A stretch of DNA of 64,000 nt from NCBI GenBank assembly GCA_963777125.1, contig CAVZPN010000048.1, forward strand, positions 1 through 64,000. Reading direction: 5' to 3'. Made by a program: the position numbers and the translations under genes. The notes below the pieces were generated by a model. The model was not told the DNA's origin and did no database searches. It worked only from the letters and a program-made list of their open reading frames with translations. This stretch comes from an uncultured archaeon (lineage in GTDB: Archaea; Nanobdellota; Nanobdellia; Woesearchaeales; UBA9642). This document shows, one piece after another, positions 17,656 to 41,507 of the stretch. Numbering within the stretch: position 1 is the first letter of the stretch; each line of letters opens with the position of its first letter.

Positions 17656-17875
17656 AGAATGCCGAATCTATAAATGCTAATCTTCTTGAGATTTCAACGA
17701 TGTTTTTTTCCCATTCTTGAATTTCTCTATCTTCTTCAGCCTTTAATTCCTTAATTTTTTCTAGTGTTTGTGTTGTTTCCTTTAACTTTTGTTTCATCAC
17801 ATCAACTATGTTTAAGACTTCTCTATAATCGGCTATTTTAACAAAAACTGGTAAACTTTTATCCATAAATATCAC
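17642..17875 (-). CDS. Small coiled-coil protein
   Basis: 77-aa ORF with heptad-like pattern. Confidence 0.35.
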   Translation of the reverse strand: MIFMDKSLPVFVKIADYREVLNIVDVMKQKLKETTQTLEKIKELKAEEDREIQEWEKNIVEISRRLAFIDSAFFENE

Positions 17876-17877
17876 CT

Positions 17878-29224: not shown

Positions 29225-31705
29225 ATGGCTGAAGATAAGAACATAAAACGAGTAAAAAGTGCGAGTGCAGATGATGCGAACATCGTCATGCAGACACTTG
29301 AAGAAGAGATGAAGAAATCTTATCTAGATTATGCAATGTCGGTAATTATCGGAAGAGCACTACCTGACGTTAAAGATGGCTTAAAACCAGTTCATAGAAG
29401 AATATTATATGCTATGAATGAATTAAATAATACTTATAATAAACCGTACAAGAAATGTGCAAGAATCGTTGGAGAAGTACTTGGTAAGTATCATCCTCAT
29501 GGCGATAGTGCAGTATACGATTCTATGGTTAGAATGGCTCAAGAATTCTCACTTAGATACCCGTTAGTGCAAGGTCAAGGAAATTTTGGTTCTATTGATG
29601 GAGATTCAGCTGCAGCAATGAGATATACTGAAGCGCGATTAGCTAAAATCTCTGATGAAATGCTACAAGATATAGATAAAGAAACAGTAGAATTTACACC
29701 AAATTTCGATGGTACATTAAAAGAACCTGCTGTTATGCCGAGTAAATTTCCTAATTTATTTATTAACGGAAGTAGCGGTATTGCTGTAGGTATGGCAACA
29801 AATATTCCTCCACACAATATTACTGAAATGTGCAGCGCAGTAATAAGTGCAATTGATAATCCAGATATTAGTACAGAAGAATTATTACAAATAGTTAAAG
29901 GTCCTGATTTTCCAACTGGCGCAGAAATTATTGGTAGAAGCGGAATAATTAGCGCATATAATACTGGTCGAGGAAGCGTTAGAATACGATCAGTAATTGA
30001 AATGGAAGAGAAAAAGGATAGAAAAAGATTAATTGTAAAAGAAATACCTTATCAAGTAAATAAAGCTCAATTAGTAGAAAACATTGCTGAATTAGTTAAA
30101 GAGAAAAAAATTCCTGAAATTAGCGATCTAAGAGATGAATCAGATAGAGATGGAGTTAGAATAGTAATTGAATTAAAAAGAGATGCAAATCCTGAAATAA
30201 TAAAAAATATGTTATATAAATATTCTAGATTAGAAGATAATTTTGGAATAAATGTTGTTGCAATTGTAAACAATGAACCTAAATTATTATCATTAAAATT
30301 ATATTTAAGACACTATATCGAGCATAGAATAGATGTTGTACGTAAGAGATGCATCTTTGATTTAAGAAAAGCTGAAGAAAGAGCACACATTCTTGAAGGA
30401 TTAAAATTAGCATTACATAATATTGACGATATTATTAATATTATCAGAAATAGCAAGAGTGCTGAAGATGATGCTAAAAAATCATTAATGGATAAATACA
30501 AATTTAGTGAAGCTCAAACTAATGCTATTTTAGAAATGAAAATAAGAAGACTTGCAATGCTTGAGCAAGAAAAAATAAATAACGAATATAGTGAATTAAA
30601 AGTGCAAATAACAGACTTGAAAGACATATTAAATTCCGAAACTAGAGTTAGAACAATAATCAAAACAGAAATGGATGAAATAATTCATACATATGGTAAA
30701 AATGATTCTCGTAAAACAAAAATTGTAGATGCTCCAGATGATGATAATGATTTTGAAATGGAAGATTTAATACCGAATGAAACTGTTGTAATAACAATGT
30801 CTCATTCGGGATATGTTAAAAGATTACCTATTGAAACATATAAAGTTCAAAATAGAGGCGGAAAAGGAGTAATGGCAACAGACTTAAAAGATGAAGATTA
30901 CATTGAAAGATTATTCATCGCAAAAACTCACTCTTACCTACTAATAATTACAAATAAAGGACAATTATATTGGCTTAAAGCGTATAAATTACCTGATGCA
31001 TCAAGACAATCTATGGGTAAAGCAATAGTTAATCTACTCGAATTAGAAGTTGATGAGAAAGTTAATGCAATAATACCAGTTGACGAATTTAATGATAAAC
31101 ATTACATTGTAATGGCAACCAAGAATGGAACTATTAAGAAAACAAATTTAATAGAATTCTCAAATCCAAGAAAAGGCGGAATTGCAGCAATAAATTTAGA
31201 TACTGAACTTAAAGATCAATTAGTAAATGTTGTAATGACTGATGGCACAAAAGACATAATGCTTGCAACAAAAAAAGGACTTGCATCAAGATTTAACGAA
31301 GAAGATGTAAGAGCAACAGGAAGAACAAGTCAAGGAGTTCGTGGAATAAGACTTGCAAAAGATGATTCTGTTGTAGGAATGATAATTGCTGAAGATAGTC
31401 ATCAAGTATTAACACTTACAGAAAATGGTTACGGTAAAAAAACAGATACAACAGAATATAGACAAATTAATAGAGGAGGAAAAGGTGTGAGAAACATACT
31501 TTGCTCTGAAAGAAACGGTAATGTTTCGGTAATATTATCTGTTACAGATACTGATGATGTATTATTCATATCAAAGAAAGGAATAATTATTAGAACGCCA
31601 TGCGATCAAATATCAACTGTTGGAAGAAGCACTCAAGGAGTAAGATTAATGAAACTTGGCGCAAGCGATAAAGCAATTAATATGACAAAGATATTGAAGG
31701 AATAA
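29225..31705 (+). CDS. gyrA: DNA gyrase subunit A
   Basis: [32 protein letters not shown] and active-site region; 826 aa; repeated beta-pinwheel C-terminal blades. Confidence 0.9.
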
Positions 31706-32211
31706 TGAAACTAAATCTCACAAAAGAAGAAATAAAAGAAACAGTATTACATTTTGGAGAAACAACTATATTACGAAATAATTATGAAAATAATATCCCT
31801 AATGTAGTAGTCGAAATATTCTTCGAAAAATACAACCATATAAAAATATATGGTCCGAGTTTAGAAACTTTCGGACAAATTTCTACTCACACATTTAAAA
31901 ACTTTTTAGAAAGAAACGGAACAATAGAAGCATTACTTACAGAAGATTTAGAATCTAATAAAAATTCACTTATTTCCAAATTCTATCTAGAATATCAAAA
32001 TAATATACAAATAAAATTCATTCAAGATAACAAATTAAAAATTTCAGAAGAAGATGAATATAGATCATATCTAATAATAGGAGATGAAAAAGGCTTTATT
32101 TTTAAACAACATCATAAAAAAGATTCTTCTAAAAGTTATATTTTTGATTCTTTAAACAACGCAAAACAAACCAATACATTAAATGAAATATTTAATCGTT
32201 TAAAAAATTAG
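31705..32211 (+). CDS. Hypothetical protein, paralogue 1, translationally coupled to gyrA
   Basis: Start ATG overlaps the gyrA stop by 1 nt (TAATG); about 40% identical to the next ORF. Confidence 0.5.
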   Translation: MKLNLTKEEIKETVLHFGETTILRNNYENNIPNVVVEIFFEKYNHIKIYGPSLETFGQISTHTFKNFLERNGTIEALLTEDLESNKNSLISKFYLEYQNNIQIKFIQDNKLKISEEDEYRSYLIIGDEKGFIFKQHHKKDSSKSYIFDSLNNAKQTNTLNEIFNRLKN

Positions 32212-32328: not shown

Positions 32329-32940
32329 ATGACTATGATATCTAAAGAAGACTTCGCAAGAAAAACAATAACAGAATGGGCAAGATTAAAAGAACCATGT
32401 ACGTATAAACCAACTTGCGAACACAATGTGCCAAGCATATTCTTAGAAACCTTTTTTAATAATTATAATAATATAAAATTATACGGTTCGAGCCTAGAAG
32501 CTTTTGGAAATCTTCCAACTCAAACATTTAAAGACTTTTTAGATAGAAATGGAACACTTGAATTACTACTTACAGAAAAATTAGAACCGCATTCTATTGA
32601 AACTCCTTCACTTATTTCTAAATTTTTAACAAAATATGAGAAAAACATAACTGTAAACCATGTAGATTTACAAATAATTAAAAATAAAATAGTAGAAAAA
32701 CAGAATCAGAAAAAAAGCAGTTTAATTGAAGAAATAAAAGCACTTGATACACCTAAATTTGAAGAAGAACCAGAAGAAGACTATGAGGAGTATTTTATAA
32801 CCGCAGATGATTCAGCATTTATTTTCAAAGAACATCATAAATATAACCCTAAAAGTTACTTTTTTTATTCTTTTAACAATATAGAAGAAGCTGCTAAATT
32901 AAATAACGCATTTGAGTATTTTAAAACTTTGAAAAATTAA
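32329..32940 (+). CDS. Hypothetical protein, paralogue 2 of the gyrA-coupled gene
   Basis: Shared blocks F(F/L)E.(F/Y)N.IK.YG.SLE.FG ... F.(D/N)FL.RNGT.E.LLTE.LE and C-terminal IFK.HHK...KSY.F.S.NN. Confidence 0.5.
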   Translation: MTMISKEDFARKTITEWARLKEPCTYKPTCEHNVPSIFLETFFNNYNNIKLYGSSLEAFGNLPTQTFKDFLDRNGTLELLLTEKLEPHSIETPSLISKFLTKYEKNITVNHVDLQIIKNKIVEKQNQKKSSLIEEIKALDTPKFEEEPEEDYEEYFITADDSAFIFKEHHKYNPKSYFFYSFNNIEEAAKLNNAFEYFKTLKN

Positions 32941-33827
32941 TAACAAATACACTTATTCTAAGATAATAAAATAATTATAAATCAAAGTATAGTTTAATAA
33001 GATACCAGAATAATATTAAAAAAAATAAAAAAATAACCTAACATGTATTAAATCCCTGATTTTTTCGACTATTAATGTCCCGTCCAATACTTTGCATTTT
33101 TCACTAAAACAATTAATCTTCAAGTTTTACTATTGACGATTGTTGAAATTGTTACGACGTTTTGTTGCTATTCATATACTATTTTGTCGTATGCCAATTC
33201 CAGGCCCCATCTTTTTGGTCTTATGAAGATCTTTTAGGGTTCTAGTTTTGCCTTTAAAAAACACTGTTAAATGTTTTTTGCCGTTAAACACATTTTTCAG
33301 GCTAACTTTACTAAGTCCTTGTGCACTATTGTGCGAACTTAATTATAGTCTATACCTCAGTTTTCTAATACTGTTTGTAGTTAGGCATTTTTTATTTCGT
33401 GTTATGTTACTGTTGTCCTTTACGAACTGATGTTTCTTTGCCTTTTTTCTTTCTCTTTTTCCCAAGATTTCTCTGTTTGTCATTTGCGTCATTACTAGTC
33501 ATAAAAATTTCTTTTTATAACGTCATTACTCATTTTTTTGATAAACGGAGTTGGAATGTGAATGGGCCCCCCTAAAGCAAAACTTTAGGAGGTCAGGATT
33601 GCGTGAATACTTTTAGTGTAACTTCGAGTATCTTTCACAATGATGCGGAGGCGATAAACAAGTTTGATGAAATGTTTTACTTATCTACATTTGAAACGTT
33701 TCGGGAATAAAACCAAAGTCTTGCTTTCAGATCCTATTTGTTCGTAACTGACGTTTTAATAGCCTTCGGCTTTGGTCCAAATTAATGGGCTTTGAAGGGT
33801 TGAAACATGCATTAAACCATTCAATGA

Positions 33828-34727
33828 TTAATTTAATGTTTCTACTAGGGTCTTTAATGTTTTATCCAAGTCTTCTAACTTCTCTACTACTTTCGTTTGA
33901 GGTTCAACAGATTTGAAAAAGCTGTATTTATCATACAAATTTTGCATTATCTGTTTACATTCTACAATTGTTGCTGTTATGGACTCTTTTTTCCAATCCG
34001 TTTTCTTATGATCGAATGTCTCTAACATTTCAATCATTCTTGAGAGTGAAAAATTAATACCGTTCAGTATTAATTCTATGCGTAAACTACTGTTTTGTTT
34101 TTGTTCTGTAGTAAGTTTTGTTGTTGCGTGTTCAATATTTTGTAACGCTAATTTGAACATACTTAATGATTGTTCGAAATTTTTTACTTCATTACTAATT
34201 TTTTTTGTTGATTTTGAACTTTCAAGTATTGTTTTGATATCGTTTCTAAATATATACAATTCTGAAATTGCACTATTTGTTGATTCTTCAAAACTTAATT
34301 CTTCAACTTCATATAATATTTCTTCTTGTTTTACTGCGATTATCTTTGCGATAAACACACCTAGCATTGCGATACTAAATATTGCTTCAATCACAACAAA
34401 TAACTTGGAATAACCAAATGGTACAATATCATTGTAACCTATAGTCATTGCTGTAATAAAACTAAAATACATACTATTTCCAAAACCGATTACATCTTTG
34501 GTTAACGGTTCATTATTGCTTGTTAGGGGATGATTAGTAAATGTGAGTCCAAAAAATATTATTCCGAAAAATAATATGCCAACTAGCCATAGTCCTATAA
34601 CTTGAAGTAAGCTGAGCCTGTCAAGTATTGTGAACTGCTTCATTTTCGTTATGGACGTTACTGTTTGTTCGGTTTCAATCGAACATGGATGTTTGGATGT
34701 ATCTAGGTATACGCTTTTGTATACCAA
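33828..34727 (-). CDS. Two-TM potassium-channel-like pore protein with degenerate selectivity filter (TIGYND) and long coiled-coil cytoplasmic tail
   Basis: Outer helix, pore helix, AMTIGYNDIVP (versus canonical T-V/I-G-Y-G-D) and inner helix pattern as in KcsA-type channels. Confidence 0.5.
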   Translation of the reverse strand: MVYKSVYLDTSKHPCSIETEQTVTSITKMKQFTILDRLSLLQVIGLWLVGILFFGIIFFGLTFTNHPLTSNNEPLTKDVIGFGNSMYFSFITAMTIGYNDIVPFGYSKLFVVIEAIFSIAMLGVFIAKIIAVKQEEILYEVEELSFEESTNSAISELYIFRNDIKTILESSKSTKKISNEVKNFEQSLSMFKLALQNIEHATTKLTTEQKQNSSLRIELILNGINFSLSRMIEMLETFDHKKTDWKKESITATIVECKQIMQNLYDKYSFFKSVEPQTKVVEKLEDLDKTLKTLVETLN

Positions 34728-34920
34728 TATCTCTTTTAGTGATTGAACTTATATTTAAATGTTCTGATTTATGCTTAATTGTGCGGGAAAATAACTCAAA
34801 AAAACCTAAAAATAAGCAAAAATATCAATAATAATACTAAAAAATAAGAGAAAAAATTAAACTAAACAAGCATAAAAAAAGAACTAAATCCATAAAAATA
34901 GAATTTAATATTAATTAATA

Positions 34921-35511
34921 TTATTGATCTAATAAAATATATTTCTTATTATTAATCTCTAGTTCATAAGTATGCAAAACTCCTTGGTCTAATACCCCTT
35001 TAGCAATAATGGTAGAATTATTTTTTTTAGCGAGAATTAAGCCACTATAAGCATTAACTAGTGAATCGCCATTAACACAATTATTATTTCTCATATGAAA
35101 GAACGTTGAAGCTTCAATATATTTTGAATCACATTTAATAGAATCAACACTATTAGTTAAAATAAAATTAATATTAAAGGTGGTTTCTTTATGCATAACT
35201 TTTGCTAAAGAATAAATATTATATCGATAATAAGTACTCATATCATCATTAACATATTTAGTTATTGAAGAAACTTTTTCAAGTTTTGCAATTGAACCAA
35301 ATATAGCAACCTTATGACCACGATAATTAGAACTAACAACATCATCTATAGAAGTAAAAACATAATGTTTAGGACGCTTTGCTTTTTCATATTTAAACGA
35401 TATGGTGCAAGCATTTAAAGTTGCCGCAGTAAGACCCAATAAAGAATAATAAGACATATTATTAGATAGTTTGACTAATAATTTATTAAAATTTATCAAA
35501 ATATTACTCAT
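34921..35511 (-). CDS. Secreted or lipoprotein-like hypothetical protein
   Basis: N-terminal hydrophobic signal ending LTAATLNAC (lipobox-like L-x-A-C). Confidence 0.4.
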   Translation of the reverse strand: MSNILINFNKLLVKLSNNMSYYSLLGLTAATLNACTISFKYEKAKRPKHYVFTSIDDVVSSNYRGHKVAIFGSIAKLEKVSSITKYVNDDMSTYYRYNIYSLAKVMHKETTFNINFILTNSVDSIKCDSKYIEASTFFHMRNNNCVNGDSLVNAYSGLILAKKNNSTIIAKGVLDQGVLHTYELEINNKKYILLDQ

Positions 35512-35752
35512 AATAAGATTAAAAAAAAGGAATTATTATAAAGTTTACTATTTATAACTCCTTGCCAGTAGATATTATTAGGAATTAAAATCATGATTAA
35601 CTTTTTAATATAAATATATTTAGCATAACGTAGGCTTAATTCAAATACGAAAGAAAAATTAAAAAAACAACATTATAAGATTTAAGCGAAAGACAAATAA
35701 GAGAAGAAGTAAAAGAAAAAATAAAAATTCGACAAACAACCAAAAATATATT

Positions 35753-37240
35753 CTAACGTTTATAATGAGTTGTTTTCATATTATTATATTCTACACTTGT
35801 CTCTGCTGTCGTTTCATTAGATATAATATTTGTCAAAGTATCTATACCAAAACTAATTAATGATTCATTAACAAACTTAATACGTCTAGTATATGCCAGG
35901 TGGGTTACACAACACCTGTAAGTTCTAACATCATCATTACAATCTTCCCATAATTTAAATTTAGCCATTCCTGGTTTTGTTAAATCCCTTTCTCTTAAAT
36001 GCCTATCAAATGAACCATATTCAGGTAACCATGTCAAAATATTATCCTTAACTAAAGTATTTAATTTTGCATTAGACACGTTAATAAGATTATGCTGTTT
36101 GGCATAAACTATTGATTGAAATTCAAGAAACCCTGGTTCTTTTTTAGTTGATAATTGTGCACATTTTTTAGCCAAATAATCTTTGGCATTTATACTAAGT
36201 AAATTATAGTTAGAAAATAATTTAGTATAATCTCTACCATCTTGAATCTTTACTTGCACACCATTAACAACAGCACAACTTAAAATATCTTGAGAACCAT
36301 AACCAGTTTTAAGTTTAGAACCATAATCCTTAAAATCGTATTTTATACTACGAACACCCTTTAAGAAATTTTGAAACATAATTAATGGATCATCATGTTT
36401 AAGTGCTTTTAATAAAGGCTTAATATTTGACATCTCTTTACAAGCTATTTTATCCACTATACTTTTTAAAATATTTTTTTTAGTAGTATAATACGTTATT
36501 AATTTATCATTATTTGCAACGTAATTAAATAATTTCTTTTCAGAATCAACTAATAAAGCATTAGTTGTTAAAGCAACAGTATTTGAAGGATTATTACGAT
36601 TTTCCAACATATCATCAAATGATTGCATAGCAGAAACAATATTGGAATAAGATTTAGTTGCTTCGCGTGTACGTCTCTCTAAACGATTGGCACGATCATC
36701 ATAATTACATAGACTATTTACTAAACCTCTGCTCCTCAAATTAGGCTTTAATATTGCATCATACTTTTCCATTTCAGATATTGTTGAATTAATATTTTTT
36801 CTAACTAACTGTTCTAAATGTGTTTTATCTAATACGCCATCAGATTGCGAAGTTGAGACCATCTCAGTAACATATTTATCTGCAATCTTTCTTAATTGAT
36901 CAAAAGTTATCCCTTTACGAAGTGTGCCATTTTTATGAAATGCACATGATAATTTATTATTAACATCAACACTTAAATTATTAGCAGTATCTTTAGTATT
37001 TTTAACTAAACTATCTAAAATATTAACAGATTCTTGCCAATTATTAATAATATTATTCATTAATGCTTGATATTTATTATGATAAAAAAACTGTAAAACA
37101 GTATTTTCATAATCTTTCTCTATAGCTAATACTTGCGCAGCATTTTTTTCATTTAATGCATTATATTCATTCATAAATTCTTCATCAGGTTTAACTGATA
37201 CTATCTTTTTTTCTAAGGAATTATTTTTTAATATAGTCAT
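35753..37240 (-). CDS. Large hypothetical protein (495 aa), no signal peptide
   Basis: Intact ORF; C-terminal R-x4-H (RCCVTH) reminiscent of HEPN but unsupported. Confidence 0.45.
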   Translation of the reverse strand: MTILKNNSLEKKIVSVKPDEEFMNEYNALNEKNAAQVLAIEKDYENTVLQFFYHNKYQALMNNIINNWQESVNILDSLVKNTKDTANNLSVDVNNKLSCAFHKNGTLRKGITFDQLRKIADKYVTEMVSTSQSDGVLDKTHLEQLVRKNINSTISEMEKYDAILKPNLRSRGLVNSLCNYDDRANRLERRTREATKSYSNIVSAMQSFDDMLENRNNPSNTVALTTNALLVDSEKKLFNYVANNDKLITYYTTKKNILKSIVDKIACKEMSNIKPLLKALKHDDPLIMFQNFLKGVRSIKYDFKDYGSKLKTGYGSQDILSCAVVNGVQVKIQDGRDYTKLFSNYNLLSINAKDYLAKKCAQLSTKKEPGFLEFQSIVYAKQHNLINVSNAKLNTLVKDNILTWLPEYGSFDRHLRERDLTKPGMAKFKLWEDCNDDVRTYRCCVTHLAYTRRIKFVNESLISFGIDTLTNIISNETTAETSVEYNNMKTTHYKR

Positions 37241-37304
37241 TTTTCATCACCTTTTTTAATCTCCAAAATATTGATCTTCAATCAATAAAAAGTAAAAAAA
37301 TAAA

Positions 37305-37994
37305 TTACTTTTTCAAGTAAACTCCGAGCAATATTGCACCTTCTCCAAGTTTTGCGTTAGTAACTTCTGCTCTAACATAACTCGATACGTGATCTGTGAA
37401 TTTTTTATTTAATTCTAACCATGTTATGTTTTTGATTTTTGCGTCGTAAGGTTTTGTTGTGTTACACCATGCATATCCACTGTATCCGTGTCCAAGATTT
37501 TTTCCAATAAGGAAAGTTACATTTGCCTTATCTTTATTAGCAGTCATTCTAACATAACCAAAATCTGCTCCGACCTTCTTAGAAATTGTTTTATTCAATA
37601 AACCATATTGAACATCAACTATTCCTTTTTTTGTTGTAGTTATTACTGAACATATTCCTGTTCCTGCCCCATTTTTTGTCATAGTTAATGTGTTACTTCC
37701 AAAATATGTTTGGGAATTAAAATTCTCCATTAAATGTAATCCGTCGTACTTGAAAGTTAGTTCATCAATTTTAGCACTTGAACTTACATATACTTCAGTT
37801 CTTGAATCTAAACTTTGATTAGTGCTCTTTAAAGCAGCATCTACTTTTGCATCAAGTTTTAGCTCAATCTTTGACCTATTAGATTCTATTGAATCAGACT
37901 TTATTATTTGTGCCGTTAAAGGACTACAATACATTGTTGTCATTAATGCCGTAGCAGTTATTATTTTTCTAAAATTGTTTTTGAAATTATTCAT
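37305..37994 (-). CDS. Secreted hypothetical protein (beta-rich)
   Basis: N-terminal signal peptide MNNFKNNFRKIITATALMTTMYCSPLTAQ. Confidence 0.45.
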   Translation of the reverse strand: MNNFKNNFRKIITATALMTTMYCSPLTAQIIKSDSIESNRSKIELKLDAKVDAALKSTNQSLDSRTEVYVSSSAKIDELTFKYDGLHLMENFNSQTYFGSNTLTMTKNGAGTGICSVITTTKKGIVDVQYGLLNKTISKKVGADFGYVRMTANKDKANVTFLIGKNLGHGYSGYAWCNTTKPYDAKIKNITWLELNKKFTDHVSSYVRAEVTNAKLGEGAILLGVYLKK

Positions 37995-38152
37995 TTTTCA
38001 TCACCTTCTTTTTACATTATTTTTTTCGTAATTCATAATCGGCTTAGGGTTTCTGTTTAGCCATTGTTTGTTTCTGTTACTATTACTATGTGATAACTAC
38101 TATTTAAACCTTTTTAGCAAAATATTTAAATATTTAATATAAAATATACCTT

Positions 38153-39133
38153 ATGTATCAAAAAAATAAAGAAAGAAAAGATATTTCTACAATTAACCTT
38201 GATTTAAAGGATAAAAAGTTATTACTAGAATTATTTAGCACAGAAAAAAAGTCGAAAATAGAATTAAGCAAAAAGATACTAATTTCAAAAGAAATGCTAA
38301 GTTATAGAGTTAAAAGATTAAAATCAGAAAACATATTACAAAATATTTCTCCAATAATAGATTATTCAAAACTAGGATACCATATTTATAGACTGCAAAT
38401 AAGATATAATTCTATAACACTAGAAAAAAAACAAGAAATCATAAAGTACCTAGAACAAATACCTGAATTAAGCTGGCTTGTGGAACTTGCAGGACCATGG
38501 GATATTGCAATAGGATTTATGATTAGAAATACTGAAGATTTTGAAAAAATATACTCTGATATTATGAAAAATTATGGTAGCATTATACAAAACAAATTAT
38601 TTACAATTATAACAAGTATAGAACACTTATCGCCAAATTATATCTGCCCAGGAACTAGACAAAAACTTGTAACAGGAAAAAACTACGACAACATAATACT
38701 TGAAGAAAATGCAAAAAAGATTATACGAGAATTAAATAAAGATGGTCAATTAACACTAAGCGAACTTGCAAAAAGATTAAAAGTATCGATAAGTACAATA
38801 AAATATCACTTAGAATATTTAGAATTAAAACAAATAATTATAGGATATAAACCAAGCATAAACGCAGCAAAATTAGGTTTTGAACATTTTAAAGTAATGT
38901 TAGAATTAGAGGATATAAGTAAAAAAAATACTGCAAAGGAAATATTAGAACAAAACAATAACGTTACCTACATTACAGAATCATTAGGAAAATACGATTT
39001 AGAATTTGAAGCAGAATTCACAAAAATGGATGAAGTATTAAGACTTATAAAACAATTAAAAGATCAAATAGAATTAAGAAATAGCGAAATAATATTTTCA
39101 AATAAAGAATTAATAGTGAGAGACATAATATGA
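38153..39133 (+). CDS. Tandem (duplicated) Lrp/AsnC-like regulator, paralogue of 26600-27607
   Basis: Two HTH+RAM halves (..YSKLGY, ..AAKLGF). Confidence 0.5.
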   Translation: MYQKNKERKDISTINLDLKDKKLLLELFSTEKKSKIELSKKILISKEMLSYRVKRLKSENILQNISPIIDYSKLGYHIYRLQIRYNSITLEKKQEIIKYLEQIPELSWLVELAGPWDIAIGFMIRNTEDFEKIYSDIMKNYGSIIQNKLFTIITSIEHLSPNYICPGTRQKLVTGKNYDNIILEENAKKIIRELNKDGQLTLSELAKRLKVSISTIKYHLEYLELKQIIIGYKPSINAAKLGFEHFKVMLELEDISKKNTAKEILEQNNNVTYITESLGKYDLEFEAEFTKMDEVLRLIKQLKDQIELRNSEIIFSNKELIVRDII

Positions 39134-40368
39134 GCTTTTTTGGAATATTTAGGAATAGAGAAAAAAGAGTAAAACTATATGAAGAAAAAGATAAGAATAT
39201 TATCGAAGCAATAGGTGCTAAAATAAAGGAATTAAGACAACCAGCCACGCAAACTCTACAACCCACAACTCAACCTATAGAAAAAGAAAAAGAGAGAAAG
39301 AAAATAAAAGTATTAGTATATAATCCAAGCAAATATTTTGAACGAGATATAGCATTCTATAAAATAGGAGTAGAGCTAGATAAGGCATTAAGTCTTGAAG
39401 AATATTTTCTAAAAATATCTACTAAAGAATATACGTCTATATTAATAATCCCTAATGATGATATTAAAGATAAAAATAGTTTAATAAATATGATAAAAGA
39501 GCCAAAACTCAAAAATCGTAATACACAAATATTGTTAGTAGGACCTCATCAATTTACAACTCAAGCAATATCTTACGGCGTAGATTACTTCATTATTTCA
39601 GACAAAGATAGAAAACTCGAATATTTAGGACTAAAAAATATGAACGTTATAAAAACTGGCCTAATATACACTATATGGAAAAGACTTATAGAAAAAGAAA
39701 ATCTCACTCAAAGCGAAACAGAGTTAGTTATTGAAAAAAAAGAATTTTACGAATCAGTAAAAGATATATTCAATATAAGAGCCAAGCAAACAGCAGACGT
39801 AACAAAAGAAGTTAAATTTTTGAATGAAAAATTAAAACAATTTAATTGTAAAAACATACTAGATGCAGGTTGCGGAAATGGTAGACTAACAGAGCCTTTA
39901 GCAAACTTAGGATTTATAATGACTGGAATTGATATAACAGATTCTCTTTTAAAAAGTGCAAAATCACAAAAAGGCAATAGTACAAACTATATCAAACCAA
40001 AATATATTAACATGAGTATACTTAAAACTGAATTCAAATCTAAAGAATTTGATGCAGTAATATTAATGTGGCACGTAATATGCGAATTAAAACAATATCA
40101 GGATGAAATATTTACCGACGTTTATAGAATTTTAAACAATAAAGGAATAATAATATTTGATTTTCCAGACATAGAAAATTATAAGGTGATAAAGAGAGAT
40201 GGAACTTATGAAGATGCAGGAGCAGGATTATTAAAATACAGGGGCATAGTTCCAGAAATAGATAAAATACTAGATATATTAGAATCAAAAGGATTTCAAA
40301 TAATAGAATATCATTGGATAAAATGGGGCATAAATAAATGCATAGTTGTTGCACGTAAAGTACAATAA
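39130..40368 (+). CDS. Class I SAM-dependent methyltransferase with N-terminal flavodoxin/receiver-like domain
   Basis: ILDAGCGNGRLTEPL motif I, post-I acidic residue (GIDITD); start overlaps the upstream regulator by 4 nt (ATGA). Confidence 0.55.
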   Translation: MSFFGIFRNREKRVKLYEEKDKNIIEAIGAKIKELRQPATQTLQPTTQPIEKEKERKKIKVLVYNPSKYFERDIAFYKIGVELDKALSLEEYFLKISTKEYTSILIIPNDDIKDKNSLINMIKEPKLKNRNTQILLVGPHQFTTQAISYGVDYFIISDKDRKLEYLGLKNMNVIKTGLIYTIWKRLIEKENLTQSETELVIEKKEFYESVKDIFNIRAKQTADVTKEVKFLNEKLKQFNCKNILDAGCGNGRLTEPLANLGFIMTGIDITDSLLKSAKSQKGNSTNYIKPKYINMSILKTEFKSKEFDAVILMWHVICELKQYQDEIFTDVYRILNNKGIIIFDFPDIENYKVIKRDGTYEDAGAGLLKYRGIVPEIDKILDILESKGFQIIEYHWIKWGINKCIVVARKVQ

Positions 40369-40428: not shown

Positions 40429-40935
40429 ATGAAGATAAATAAGCTCGATTTATTAACAAAGGGATGGAAAGCCTCAGAAATAGAACATGCATCAAAAATA
40501 ATTGAGGAAGCAGAAGATAAGAAAGATGCTAAATTTAAATTCATTGACGTATTATTATTTACAATCATGGGCAGTATAATGATTGCTAATGGTTTTGTAA
40601 GTTCTATGTTACTAGTGCCATTTATATATGCAACAAAAATAATATTTAGCATAATTCTAGCCATGATTATGGGCTTTATATTCAGCGCATTATTAACATT
40701 TGTAATATACGATATAGAACGAATACATCATAAACATGAAACAAATTTATTTATAGCGTTTATTACTAGTGGTGTTGTAAATTTCTACTTAATACTAGAA
40801 TTTACAGCAAGATTCGGAAAAACTACAGGCATTACATTAACTGAAAACATATTTATAATTGCTGGAGCATATCTAATAGCATTTTTAATACCTCATGCAA
40901 TATACAGAATACTTGGTGCTAAAAAAAACGAATAA
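40429..40935 (+). CDS. Polytopic membrane protein, hypothetical
   Basis: 4-5 hydrophobic helices. Confidence 0.45.
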   Translation: MKINKLDLLTKGWKASEIEHASKIIEEAEDKKDAKFKFIDVLLFTIMGSIMIANGFVSSMLLVPFIYATKIIFSIILAMIMGFIFSALLTFVIYDIERIHHKHETNLFIAFITSGVVNFYLILEFTARFGKTTGITLTENIFIIAGAYLIAFLIPHAIYRILGAKKNE

Positions 40936-41015
40936 ATTAGTAAAATATAACTCAATATGTTAGAGAACAACAACAAATTAAAAATATTTAAAAACTAACA
41001 CAATTAACGTGCAAC

Positions 41016-41507
41016 ATGAACAAAGAACTAATAGATTGGACGATAAACTATGTTAAAAATAAAGACTTAACATTTAGAAAATTAGTTAAATACACTCAAA
41101 AAGAAGATCATATAGAATTCGAATTCAAAGATAAAAAAATAATATACATCATTGTAGATAAATTAACTGAAGATGTCTTTAATTCTATAAAAAATATAGA
41201 ACATAAAACATTAGTTTGTCCAAACGTTGAAGATAATTTTAAATTCTTAATAAAACATTGGGAAAAACTCGCAGACACTAAAAATTTAAGTATCTTATTT
41301 GTTAATCTAAAAATAGGAGATAAATGGATAATAAATCCTCACACACATTCAATGATTGCAGATCCTGATAGCATAGAATCCGGTCTTCGAACAATGTTTG
41401 ATACTGCAAATGGAAAAGTTGCTGAAATAAAAGCAGGAAAAAAGAAAGCTTCGATGTTTGAAGAAGGAACTAGCACTGAAGACGACGATGCAAGTGATGA
41501 TGATTAA
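41016..41507 (+). CDS. Hypothetical protein with acidic C-terminal tail
   Basis: Intact ORF ending EDDDASDDD. Confidence 0.4.
   Translation: MNKELIDWTINYVKNKDLTFRKLVKYTQKEDHIEFEFKDKKIIYIIVDKLTEDVFNSIKNIEHKTLVCPNVEDNFKFLIKHWEKLADTKNLSILFVNLKIGDKWIINPHTHSMIADPDSIESGLRTMFDTANGKVAEIKAGKKKASMFEEGTSTEDDDASDDD

Follow-up and report, generated by a model that had tools for sequence, protein, structure and literature searches.

The stretch of DNA considered here comes from an uncultured Woesearchaeales archaeon (DPANN; assembly GCA_963777125.1, contig CAVZPN010000048.1). It is 64,000 nucleotides (nt) long, will be called the window, and is AT-rich, with a GC content of 0.279. Four co-directional open reading frames (ORFs) lie on its minus strand, at 33828-34727, 34921-35511, 35753-37240 and 37305-37994; on this the ORF list agrees with an earlier note, which had been made from the letters alone and took the four genes as one cluster. 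The first gene encodes a protein related to potassium channels, referred to below simply as the channel, and a block of non-coding DNA lies on its 3′ side. We think it quite likely that two unrelated things meet at this locus: a conserved core pair, formed by the channel and a structured RNA, and three lineage-specific genes that occupy a variable slot. The channel-RNA pair is the most notable feature of the neighborhood, and is made up as follows.

33828..34643, minus strand: the channel, a predicted two-transmembrane (2-TM) pore-loop cation channel of 271 amino acids (aa), with a Pfam Ion_trans_2 match and a helical C-terminal cytoplasmic domain; by synteny a core gene of the Woesearchaeota lineage
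34428..34445, minus strand: the selectivity-filter codons T67-I-G-Y-N71-D72, translated as TIGYND, with Asn in place of the second signature glycine
34644..34727, minus strand: a stretch that the mechanical ORF gains at its 5′ end by starting from a TTG, probably untranslated (homologs start at the ATG, and independent gene calls give 271 aa)
33044..33811, minus strand: a predicted conserved structured RNA of ~770 nt, recognized by covariation, homology and a strand-specific fold, with oligo-T runs at ~33013-33035 beyond its 3′ end

The mechanical ORF (33828-34727) reads as 299 aa from a TTG, and an ATG at 34643 gives 271 aa. Because all channel homologs start with MK(Q/G/E).. at the position of this ATG, and independent gene calls agree on the shorter protein, the start is placed at 34643 and the TTG-initiated ORF is considered too long. 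Pfam Ion_trans_2 matches the product at E=5.6e-10. A monomer model built by AlphaFold2 (AF2) from the family alignment, with a predicted local distance difference test (pLDDT) score of 86.6, folds into TM1, a pore helix, and a TM2 that runs as one helix through residue 145, followed by a helical bundle over residues 150-270. The protein therefore has the two TM helices around a re-entrant pore helix that define the K+ channel superfamily (Ion_trans_2; TC 1.A.1). The pore is the only part of the model that matches solved channels, the C-terminal domain matching generic helical bundles alone. This all-helical domain has no Pfam or NCBIfam match to an RCK/TrkA, CNBD or Kir-type domain. It is likely to act in gating or as a sensor, because it carries the invariant motifs EELSFEE, NFSLSR, WKKES and EKLEDLNKTL.

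When species-representative genomes were scanned with the channel alignment, full-length relatives came solely from metagenome-assembled genomes of Woesearchaeota (DPANN); the same scan returned distant relatives in Acidobacteriota and Peribacteria, with 24-30% identity and without the extreme C-terminus. Synteny was assessed by tblastn of the window proteins against the species-representative loci, three closer metagenomic contigs and 21 further contigs (loci carry L numbers below). Two sets of flanking genes serve as landmarks:

29225..31705, plus strand: gyrA, the convergent neighbor 3′ of the channel-RNA pair (tblastn)
40429..41507, plus strand: p168b, a 5-TM membrane protein, and p163, neighbors of the channel's 5′ side in relatives (tblastn)

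The channel is kept between p168b/p163, in most cases accompanied by TYW1, and the convergent gyrA in more than 20 related contigs. On its 3′ side gyrA is always convergent with it, at 71-92% identity in the relatives, and p168b/p163 are found near its 5′ side at 41-76% identity in L002, L003, L004, L006, L084, L086, L088, L090, L095 and others. TYW1, a radical-SAM wyosine gene, adjoins the channel divergently in 12 loci (e.g., L084:8106-9266, L086:3715-4878 and L002:7249-8391). It was not found anywhere in the 64-kb window, where the three ORFans take its place. The ancestral order would have been p163, p168b, TYW1 (divergent), channel, RNA and gyrA (convergent). By these comparisons the channel is a conserved, syntenic and vertically inherited core gene of its Woesearchaeota lineage, and it belongs to the small set of membrane proteins whose presence and synteny are conserved in a DPANN lineage, with a cytoplasmic domain that is uncharacterized.

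The filter itself departs from the T-[VI]-G-[YF]-G signature, which has both glycines. Translation of 34428-34445 on the minus strand gives TIGYND, just as the earlier note had read it. That note called the filter degenerate, and in the sense of a decaying sequence the term does not hold. Counted over 46 homolog clusters and the sequences taken from genomes, residue 71 is Asn 37 times, Gly 20 times and Ser twice; within the GYN clade, which comprises 38 sequences, 36 have Asn and 2 have Ser. Pairwise identity within this clade reaches 0.90 in the filter and 0.81 in the pore helix, against 0.57-0.74 elsewhere, so that the filter is the most conserved part of the protein, and T67, G69, Y70, P75 and G77 are invariant across the whole channel family. 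When the filter is masked, the main GYN clade is monophyletic in neighbor-joining trees (bootstrap 100/100), and L007, with its TIGYNN filter, is placed inside a GYG-bearing clade (bootstrap 100/100); the change from G to N has therefore occurred at least twice. Going from GGN to AAY takes two base changes, AAT and AAC are both used across the lineages, and AGY (Ser) variants exist. Other filters in the family are GYS, TLGYAN in L099 (GYA) and TLGNGAF in L008, which is nearly that of NaK.

Taken by sequence comparison, the GYN filter is held by purifying selection, with synonymous codon turnover at the Asn. Its conservation, its recurrence and its codons argue that it is neither an error nor a decaying pore. 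Apart from prior expectation, nothing speaks for a sequencing or assembly error or for a channel pseudogene, and we give either of them next to no credence: a protein identical to the window channel is encoded in an independent Logan assembly, the GYN reading occurs in about 37 clusters from JGI, ENA, NCBI and Logan with an intact, full-length ORF in all of them, and the substitution needs two base changes and is found with both Asn codons. The sequencing error that the earlier note had allowed for is thus not what the independent assemblies return.

What might such a pore do? In KcsA, T-V-G-Y provide the carbonyls of S1-S4, and the second glycine serves chiefly the outer S0 site; of all residues other than glycine, Asn occurs most often in the left-handed region of the Ramachandran plot. 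In the mechanism that we propose, the second signature glycine would have become Asn in one clade and then been kept by purifying selection, with T-I-G-Y, whose residues supply the S1-S4 ligands in canonical channels, remaining invariant. A conducting tetrameric pore would be retained and its outermost site remodeled; K+ selectivity would probably be weakened, or external block or inactivation altered, and gating would proceed through the conserved helical C-terminal domain. Since conservation peaks in the pore helix and the filter, we infer that the GYN protein still works as a cation pore, though one whose outer site is changed.

A different possibility, which we find unlikely on balance, is that the GYN protein does not conduct and serves as a membrane-anchored sensor or scaffold, its conserved function residing in the cytoplasmic helical domain. 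The textbook expectation upon loss of the second glycine is indeed of this kind: the glycines of the K+ filter, whose backbone alternates between left- and right-handed conformations, are called absolutely conserved (PMC9273215). Position 71 also drifts repeatedly within the family (N, S, A and a NaK-like deletion), and the C-terminal motifs WKKES and EKLEDLNKTL are invariant. Yet a dead pore would be expected to decay, and here the pore helix and filter stand well above the rest of the protein in identity, five residues of the pore region never change, and the Asn appears to be under purifying selection while its codons turn over. We thus favor a working pore, against which three points should nonetheless be set. 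In well-studied channels, substitutions of the second glycine reportedly abolish conduction or selectivity as a rule, as is said of the work of Heginbotham in 1994 and of hERG mutations of the G628S type. Our support for conduction consists of sequence and an AF2 monomer. Finally, among the 61 window ORFs it is the channel whose synonymous codon usage departs furthest from the rest (z -2.4, GC3, the GC content of third codon positions, 0.235).

Comparison with known channels helps to place these features. KcsA, KirBac and the MthK pore (PF07885) have the second signature glycine where the window channel has Asn; unlike them, the window channel carries a helical bundle of ~165 aa, lacks any RCK, CNBD or Kir domain, and has no specific structural relative. 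A non-glycine residue at the second glycine position is also known from the second pore of K2P7.1/KCNK7, which reads 'GLE'; that protein, however, is eukaryotic, the residue lies in one of two pore domains and is Glu rather than Asn, and the channel is reported to be silent in expression systems. The non-selective cation channel NaK of Bacillus cereus, a prokaryotic 2-TM channel, has the filter TVGDGNFS, which deviates in its outer half and has thereby lost both the outer sites and the selectivity for K+; that selectivity requires four contiguous sites (PMC3082925). NaK has lost the Tyr, whereas the window channel keeps it and changes the next residue; L008, with TLGNGAF, is the only family member near the NaK filter. 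A residue usually regarded as invariant in K+ filters has here been replaced in nature, and the replacement has stood the test of selection. With GYG ancestors and GYN, GYS, GYA and NaK-like descendants united in one small family, it is a ready series for studying the role of the second glycine in selectivity and inactivation. No paper was found on a GYN or GYND filter, nor on Woesearchaeota channels or non-coding RNAs (ncRNAs).

The second member of the pair lies in the gap beside the channel. This non-coding gap is 887 nt long, with a GC content of 0.315 overall and 0.339 in its core, against 0.15-0.25 in other intergenic DNA. The earlier note had taken it for an atypical segment next to which foreign genes might have landed. 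The segment is real and GC-richer, but it reads as a conserved structured RNA and not as a scar of acquisition. The window block is 73% identical to that of L003 over 832 nt, and conserved blocks recur in further relatives. An 18-mer from the RNA retrieved 33 metagenome loci, 21 of which are true homologs; the other 12, together with a single viral match, were set aside as chance matches in unrelated DNA. Wherever the contig extends, the true loci have the channel immediately upstream and/or gyrA downstream. Searches with nhmmer recovered the RNA from more than 30 loci, in each of them immediately 3′ of the channel (the window copy running from 33811 to 33044), and not only after GYN channels: it also follows GYG-type (L004, L006) and NaK-like (L008) ones. 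The same searches found no RNA after the most distant Woesearchaeota channel homologs (L009, L010) or after the bacterial ones. Examples of homologous RNAs are L003:1705-2434, L084:10339-11130, L002:10837-11653, L007:1130-1862 and L006:10828-11679.

An alignment of 21 sequences shows conserved blocks split by variable insertions whose lengths are not multiples of three, and its RNAalifold consensus contains 137 pairs in 23 helices. These positions are paired in 90.4% of cases, as compared with 36-48% when the partners are slid along the alignment, and 64 of the 137 pairs have changed on both sides, as compared with 19-27 in the slid controls; none of 500 shuffles reaches the observed values. 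Fold z-scores differ by strand, at -3.99 for the minus against -1.32 for the plus strand. The conserved G-U pairs and these z-scores together assign the RNA to the strand of the channel, on which it is always found. It starts ~17 nt past the channel stop codon, contains repeated AGUAAYGAC motifs (33522-33530 and 33488-33496 in the window) and a long nested 3′ domain closed by pairing of 33365-33372 with 33044-33051, and ends in oligo-T. The block at 33044-33811 thus reads as a conserved structured RNA, and makes a strongly supported candidate for a new class of large structured RNAs among the archaea, from which such classes are very scarce.

Could the block instead be conserved as DNA, for instance as a replication origin or a regulatory region, or be a decayed or unrecognized coding region? 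It does adjoin gyrA, and some assemblies carry calls of small ORFs on the other strand. Such a reading is nevertheless highly improbable: it accounts neither for compensatory double changes in nearly half of the pairs, nor for G-U pairs that make sense on the minus strand only, nor for a fold score specific to that strand. The insertions between conserved blocks do not respect a reading frame, GC is enriched as in the structured RNAs of AT-rich genomes, and an oligo-T terminator stands at the end.

With a structured RNA as the favored reading, the question becomes which one it is. Rfam 15 gave no match in the window at the gathering threshold or at E<=10, and none at E<=5 in seven homologous loci. 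RNase P was considered, the 5′ block having an AAAGUCC, as were signal recognition particle (SRP) RNA and group I or II introns; all were ruled out, no Rfam model matching at lenient thresholds. Like the large bacterial ncRNAs OLE, GOLLD, ROOL and HEARO, the window RNA is several hundred nt long, has many covarying helices, is restricted to one lineage and has no function that would be obvious from its context. Unlike them, it is archaeal (DPANN), has no match in Rfam 15 and keeps a fixed locus 3′ of one gene.

As for its expression, no T-run separates the channel stop codon from the RNA, which makes co-transcription, or a promoter within the 3′ end of the ORF, plausible. Synonymous sites are unusually constant across channel homologs in codons 205-228 and 253-264, and the EKLEDLNKTL motif, with its unusually constant codons, is confined to the channel members that bear the RNA, a weak and confounded hint. 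The synonymous conservation of codons 253-264 (0.82 vs about 0.5) could point to a promoter or another element serving the RNA, but it is not relied on, the two-fold, AT-biased codons of Glu and Lys being confounders. The fullest form of our interpretation is correspondingly tentative, and we regard it as possible rather than likely: that channel and RNA form a real conserved unit; that the RNA represents a new large class of DPANN ncRNA, co-transcribed with the channel or launched from a promoter inside its 3′ end, and functionally coupled to it; and that the second filter glycine can be replaced in working channels by Asn (twice independently), Ser or Ala.

The three remaining genes on the minus strand, and the pair that bounds them, are:

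34921..35511, minus strand: p196, a near-ORFan with a weak N-terminal hydrophobic segment, and with a C-terminal domain seen in three small membrane-anchored proteins
35753..37240, minus strand: p495, an ORFan, soluble and predicted to be mostly helical, with no domain recognized
37305..37994, minus strand: p229, a predicted secreted protein with one homolog of 55% identity, in another genomic context
38153..40368, plus strand: an Lrp/AsnC-type regulator (38153-39133) and an S-adenosylmethionine (SAM) methyltransferase (39130-40368), identified by Pfam, which bound the variable slot and form a pair common to L084

By tblastn, no related locus has p196, p495 or p229, not even L084, L086 and L088, which match the window at 88-92% identity in GyrA and at 77-83% in the channel. 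Such patchy presence among close relatives is what is expected of a genomic island. In relatives the position of the slot is taken by TYW1 and/or other secreted or lipoprotein ORFans. In L084, where the regulator and methyltransferase in the matching position are 75% and 44% identical to those of the window, the slot between this pair and the channel is occupied by TYW1, by a protein with several TM segments and by two others that bear lipoprotein-type signals. On this tblastn evidence the three genes are lineage-specific tenants of a variable slot, unlinked to the channel in any other genome.

Searches in Pfam, NCBIfam, PHROG, PADLOC and PDB sequences gave no match for any of the three proteins. 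Elsewhere, the relatives recovered were three weak ones of p196 and one homolog of p229. The former, with E values from 1e-13 to 5e-4, are all that an exhaustive HMMER search returned; they have a strong N-terminal TM helix and share a common C-terminal domain of ~85-110 aa. The protein p196 had been credited with a lipobox-like LNAC signal. The sequence is present (...LGLTAATLNAC...), but the hydrophobic segment at residues 24-38 is weak (1.39 on the Kyte-Doolittle scale), Asn at position -2 is atypical, and a lipobox Cys after the TM segment is found in none of the three homologs; by hydropathy and sequence pattern p196 does not qualify as a lipoprotein. With relatives that have no cysteine past the helix, LNAC is not a family feature.

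Much the same signal-peptide-like layout is seen at the start of p229 and of its sole homolog, P0048 (n- and h-regions followed by ..AQ). By eye and by hydropathy, both have a K/R-rich start, a hydrophobic stretch of ~15 aa and then P-x-(T/M)-A-Q. P0048 is found in the context of PolB, the p229-like gene itself, a 195-aa signal-peptide protein and a 279-aa lipobox protein, the last being 30% identical to a slot protein of L084. This likeness suggests that the slot is filled from a stock of exported proteins that vary between lineages; a common stock of such secreted and lipoprotein families is seen in L082. Pairwise comparisons of p229 with the 245-aa secreted protein of L002, of p196 with the 195-aa protein of L082, and of p495 with the 413-aa protein of L002 revealed no similarity. 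Viral-contig scans found no relatives of p495 or p229. We consider p229 and p196 to be probably exported or membrane-anchored surface proteins.

No TM or hydrophobic segment is present in p495, which is consistent, together with the empty searches, with the cytoplasmic protein lacking recognizable domains that had been described. An ORF of 495 codons in DNA of 28% GC is far beyond chance (we estimate ~0.086 stop per random codon and P of about 1e-19). An AF2 model from the single sequence had a pLDDT of 36.5 and is unusable. The 90% clustering places p495 (P0053) beneath an unrelated IS66 'transposase' fragment of 51 aa, which serves as its representative. The start regions of p495 and p229 (37219-37257 and 37973-38011) share 39 nt that are 85% identical, including GGTGATGAAAAATGA; duplication of one start region may be behind this, or else just a strong Shine-Dalgarno context that both genes have.

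Are the four genes one unit? The spacers measure 277 nt (channel-p196), 241 nt (p196-p495) and 64 nt (p495-p229), with TATA-like boxes in those of 241-277 nt before p196 and the channel, and T-runs follow the stop codon of each gene, with a T7 run past that of p229. We take this layout to suggest four separate transcription units. The earlier note had proposed, on the contrary, a single accessory module, possibly horizontally acquired and involved in interaction with a host, to which a crippled channel would belong. The genes are adjacent and co-directional, three have no homologs and two of these look exported, the slot content differs between relatives, and DPANN archaea depend on hosts. An accessory character can accordingly be retained for three of the four genes, which are absent from related loci, lie in a variable slot and include two apparently exported products. 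It does not extend to the channel, which is the only one of the four to be syntenic in relatives, being conserved without the other three in more than 20 contigs. The sole homolog of p229 also lies elsewhere, without p196, p495 or the channel, and terminator-like T-runs stand between the genes. Horizontal acquisition by composition fares no better: the codon-usage z-scores of p196, p495 and p229 are -0.58, +0.29 and -1.40, their GC content is 0.25-0.31 against a mean of 0.283, and neither GC, GC3 nor the choice of synonymous codons sets them apart from the rest of the window. No integrase, transposase, flanking repeats or nearby tRNA target was found at the ORFans, the single tRNA being 17 kb away. 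The window slot resembles the surface-protein islands of DPANN and other small-genome symbionts in having signal-peptide or lipobox genes between conserved flanks, and differs from them in lacking repeats and mobility genes, and in that p495 has no export signal. We consider a single module quite improbable, and note as a caution that adjacency and 'no homology' are not enough to call one.

In weighing the favored alternative, a conserved channel-RNA pair beside unrelated slot genes, three matters count on the other side. No homolog of p495 was found among the cluster representatives sharing 5-mers with it, and p495 itself was hidden by its mis-clustering. The export of p196 and p229 was judged by hydropathy and sequence pattern only, and the transcription units are drawn from T-runs alone.

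A few further observations concern other parts of the window. Between gyrA and the RNA lie two paralogous plus-strand ORFs, 31705-32211 and 32329-32940, of 168 and 203 aa, 38% identical, the first of which begins on the gyrA stop codon. The related loci yielded no homolog of them, the RNA there lying directly against gyrA or other genes, and their family matches are limited to a weak PHROG hit (E about 7e-4). In L007/L093/L115, L095, L106 and L099, gyrA matches as two pieces ~1.3-1.4 kb apart; in L007, residues 12-88 are at 5824-5594 and residues 85-826 at 4210-2000. The match pattern suggests an intein or other insertion in several relatives, the gyrA of the window being uninterrupted. Finally, an intergenic segment of 222 nt at 17656-17877 has a GC content of 0.293, as compared with 0.15-0.25 in other spacers.

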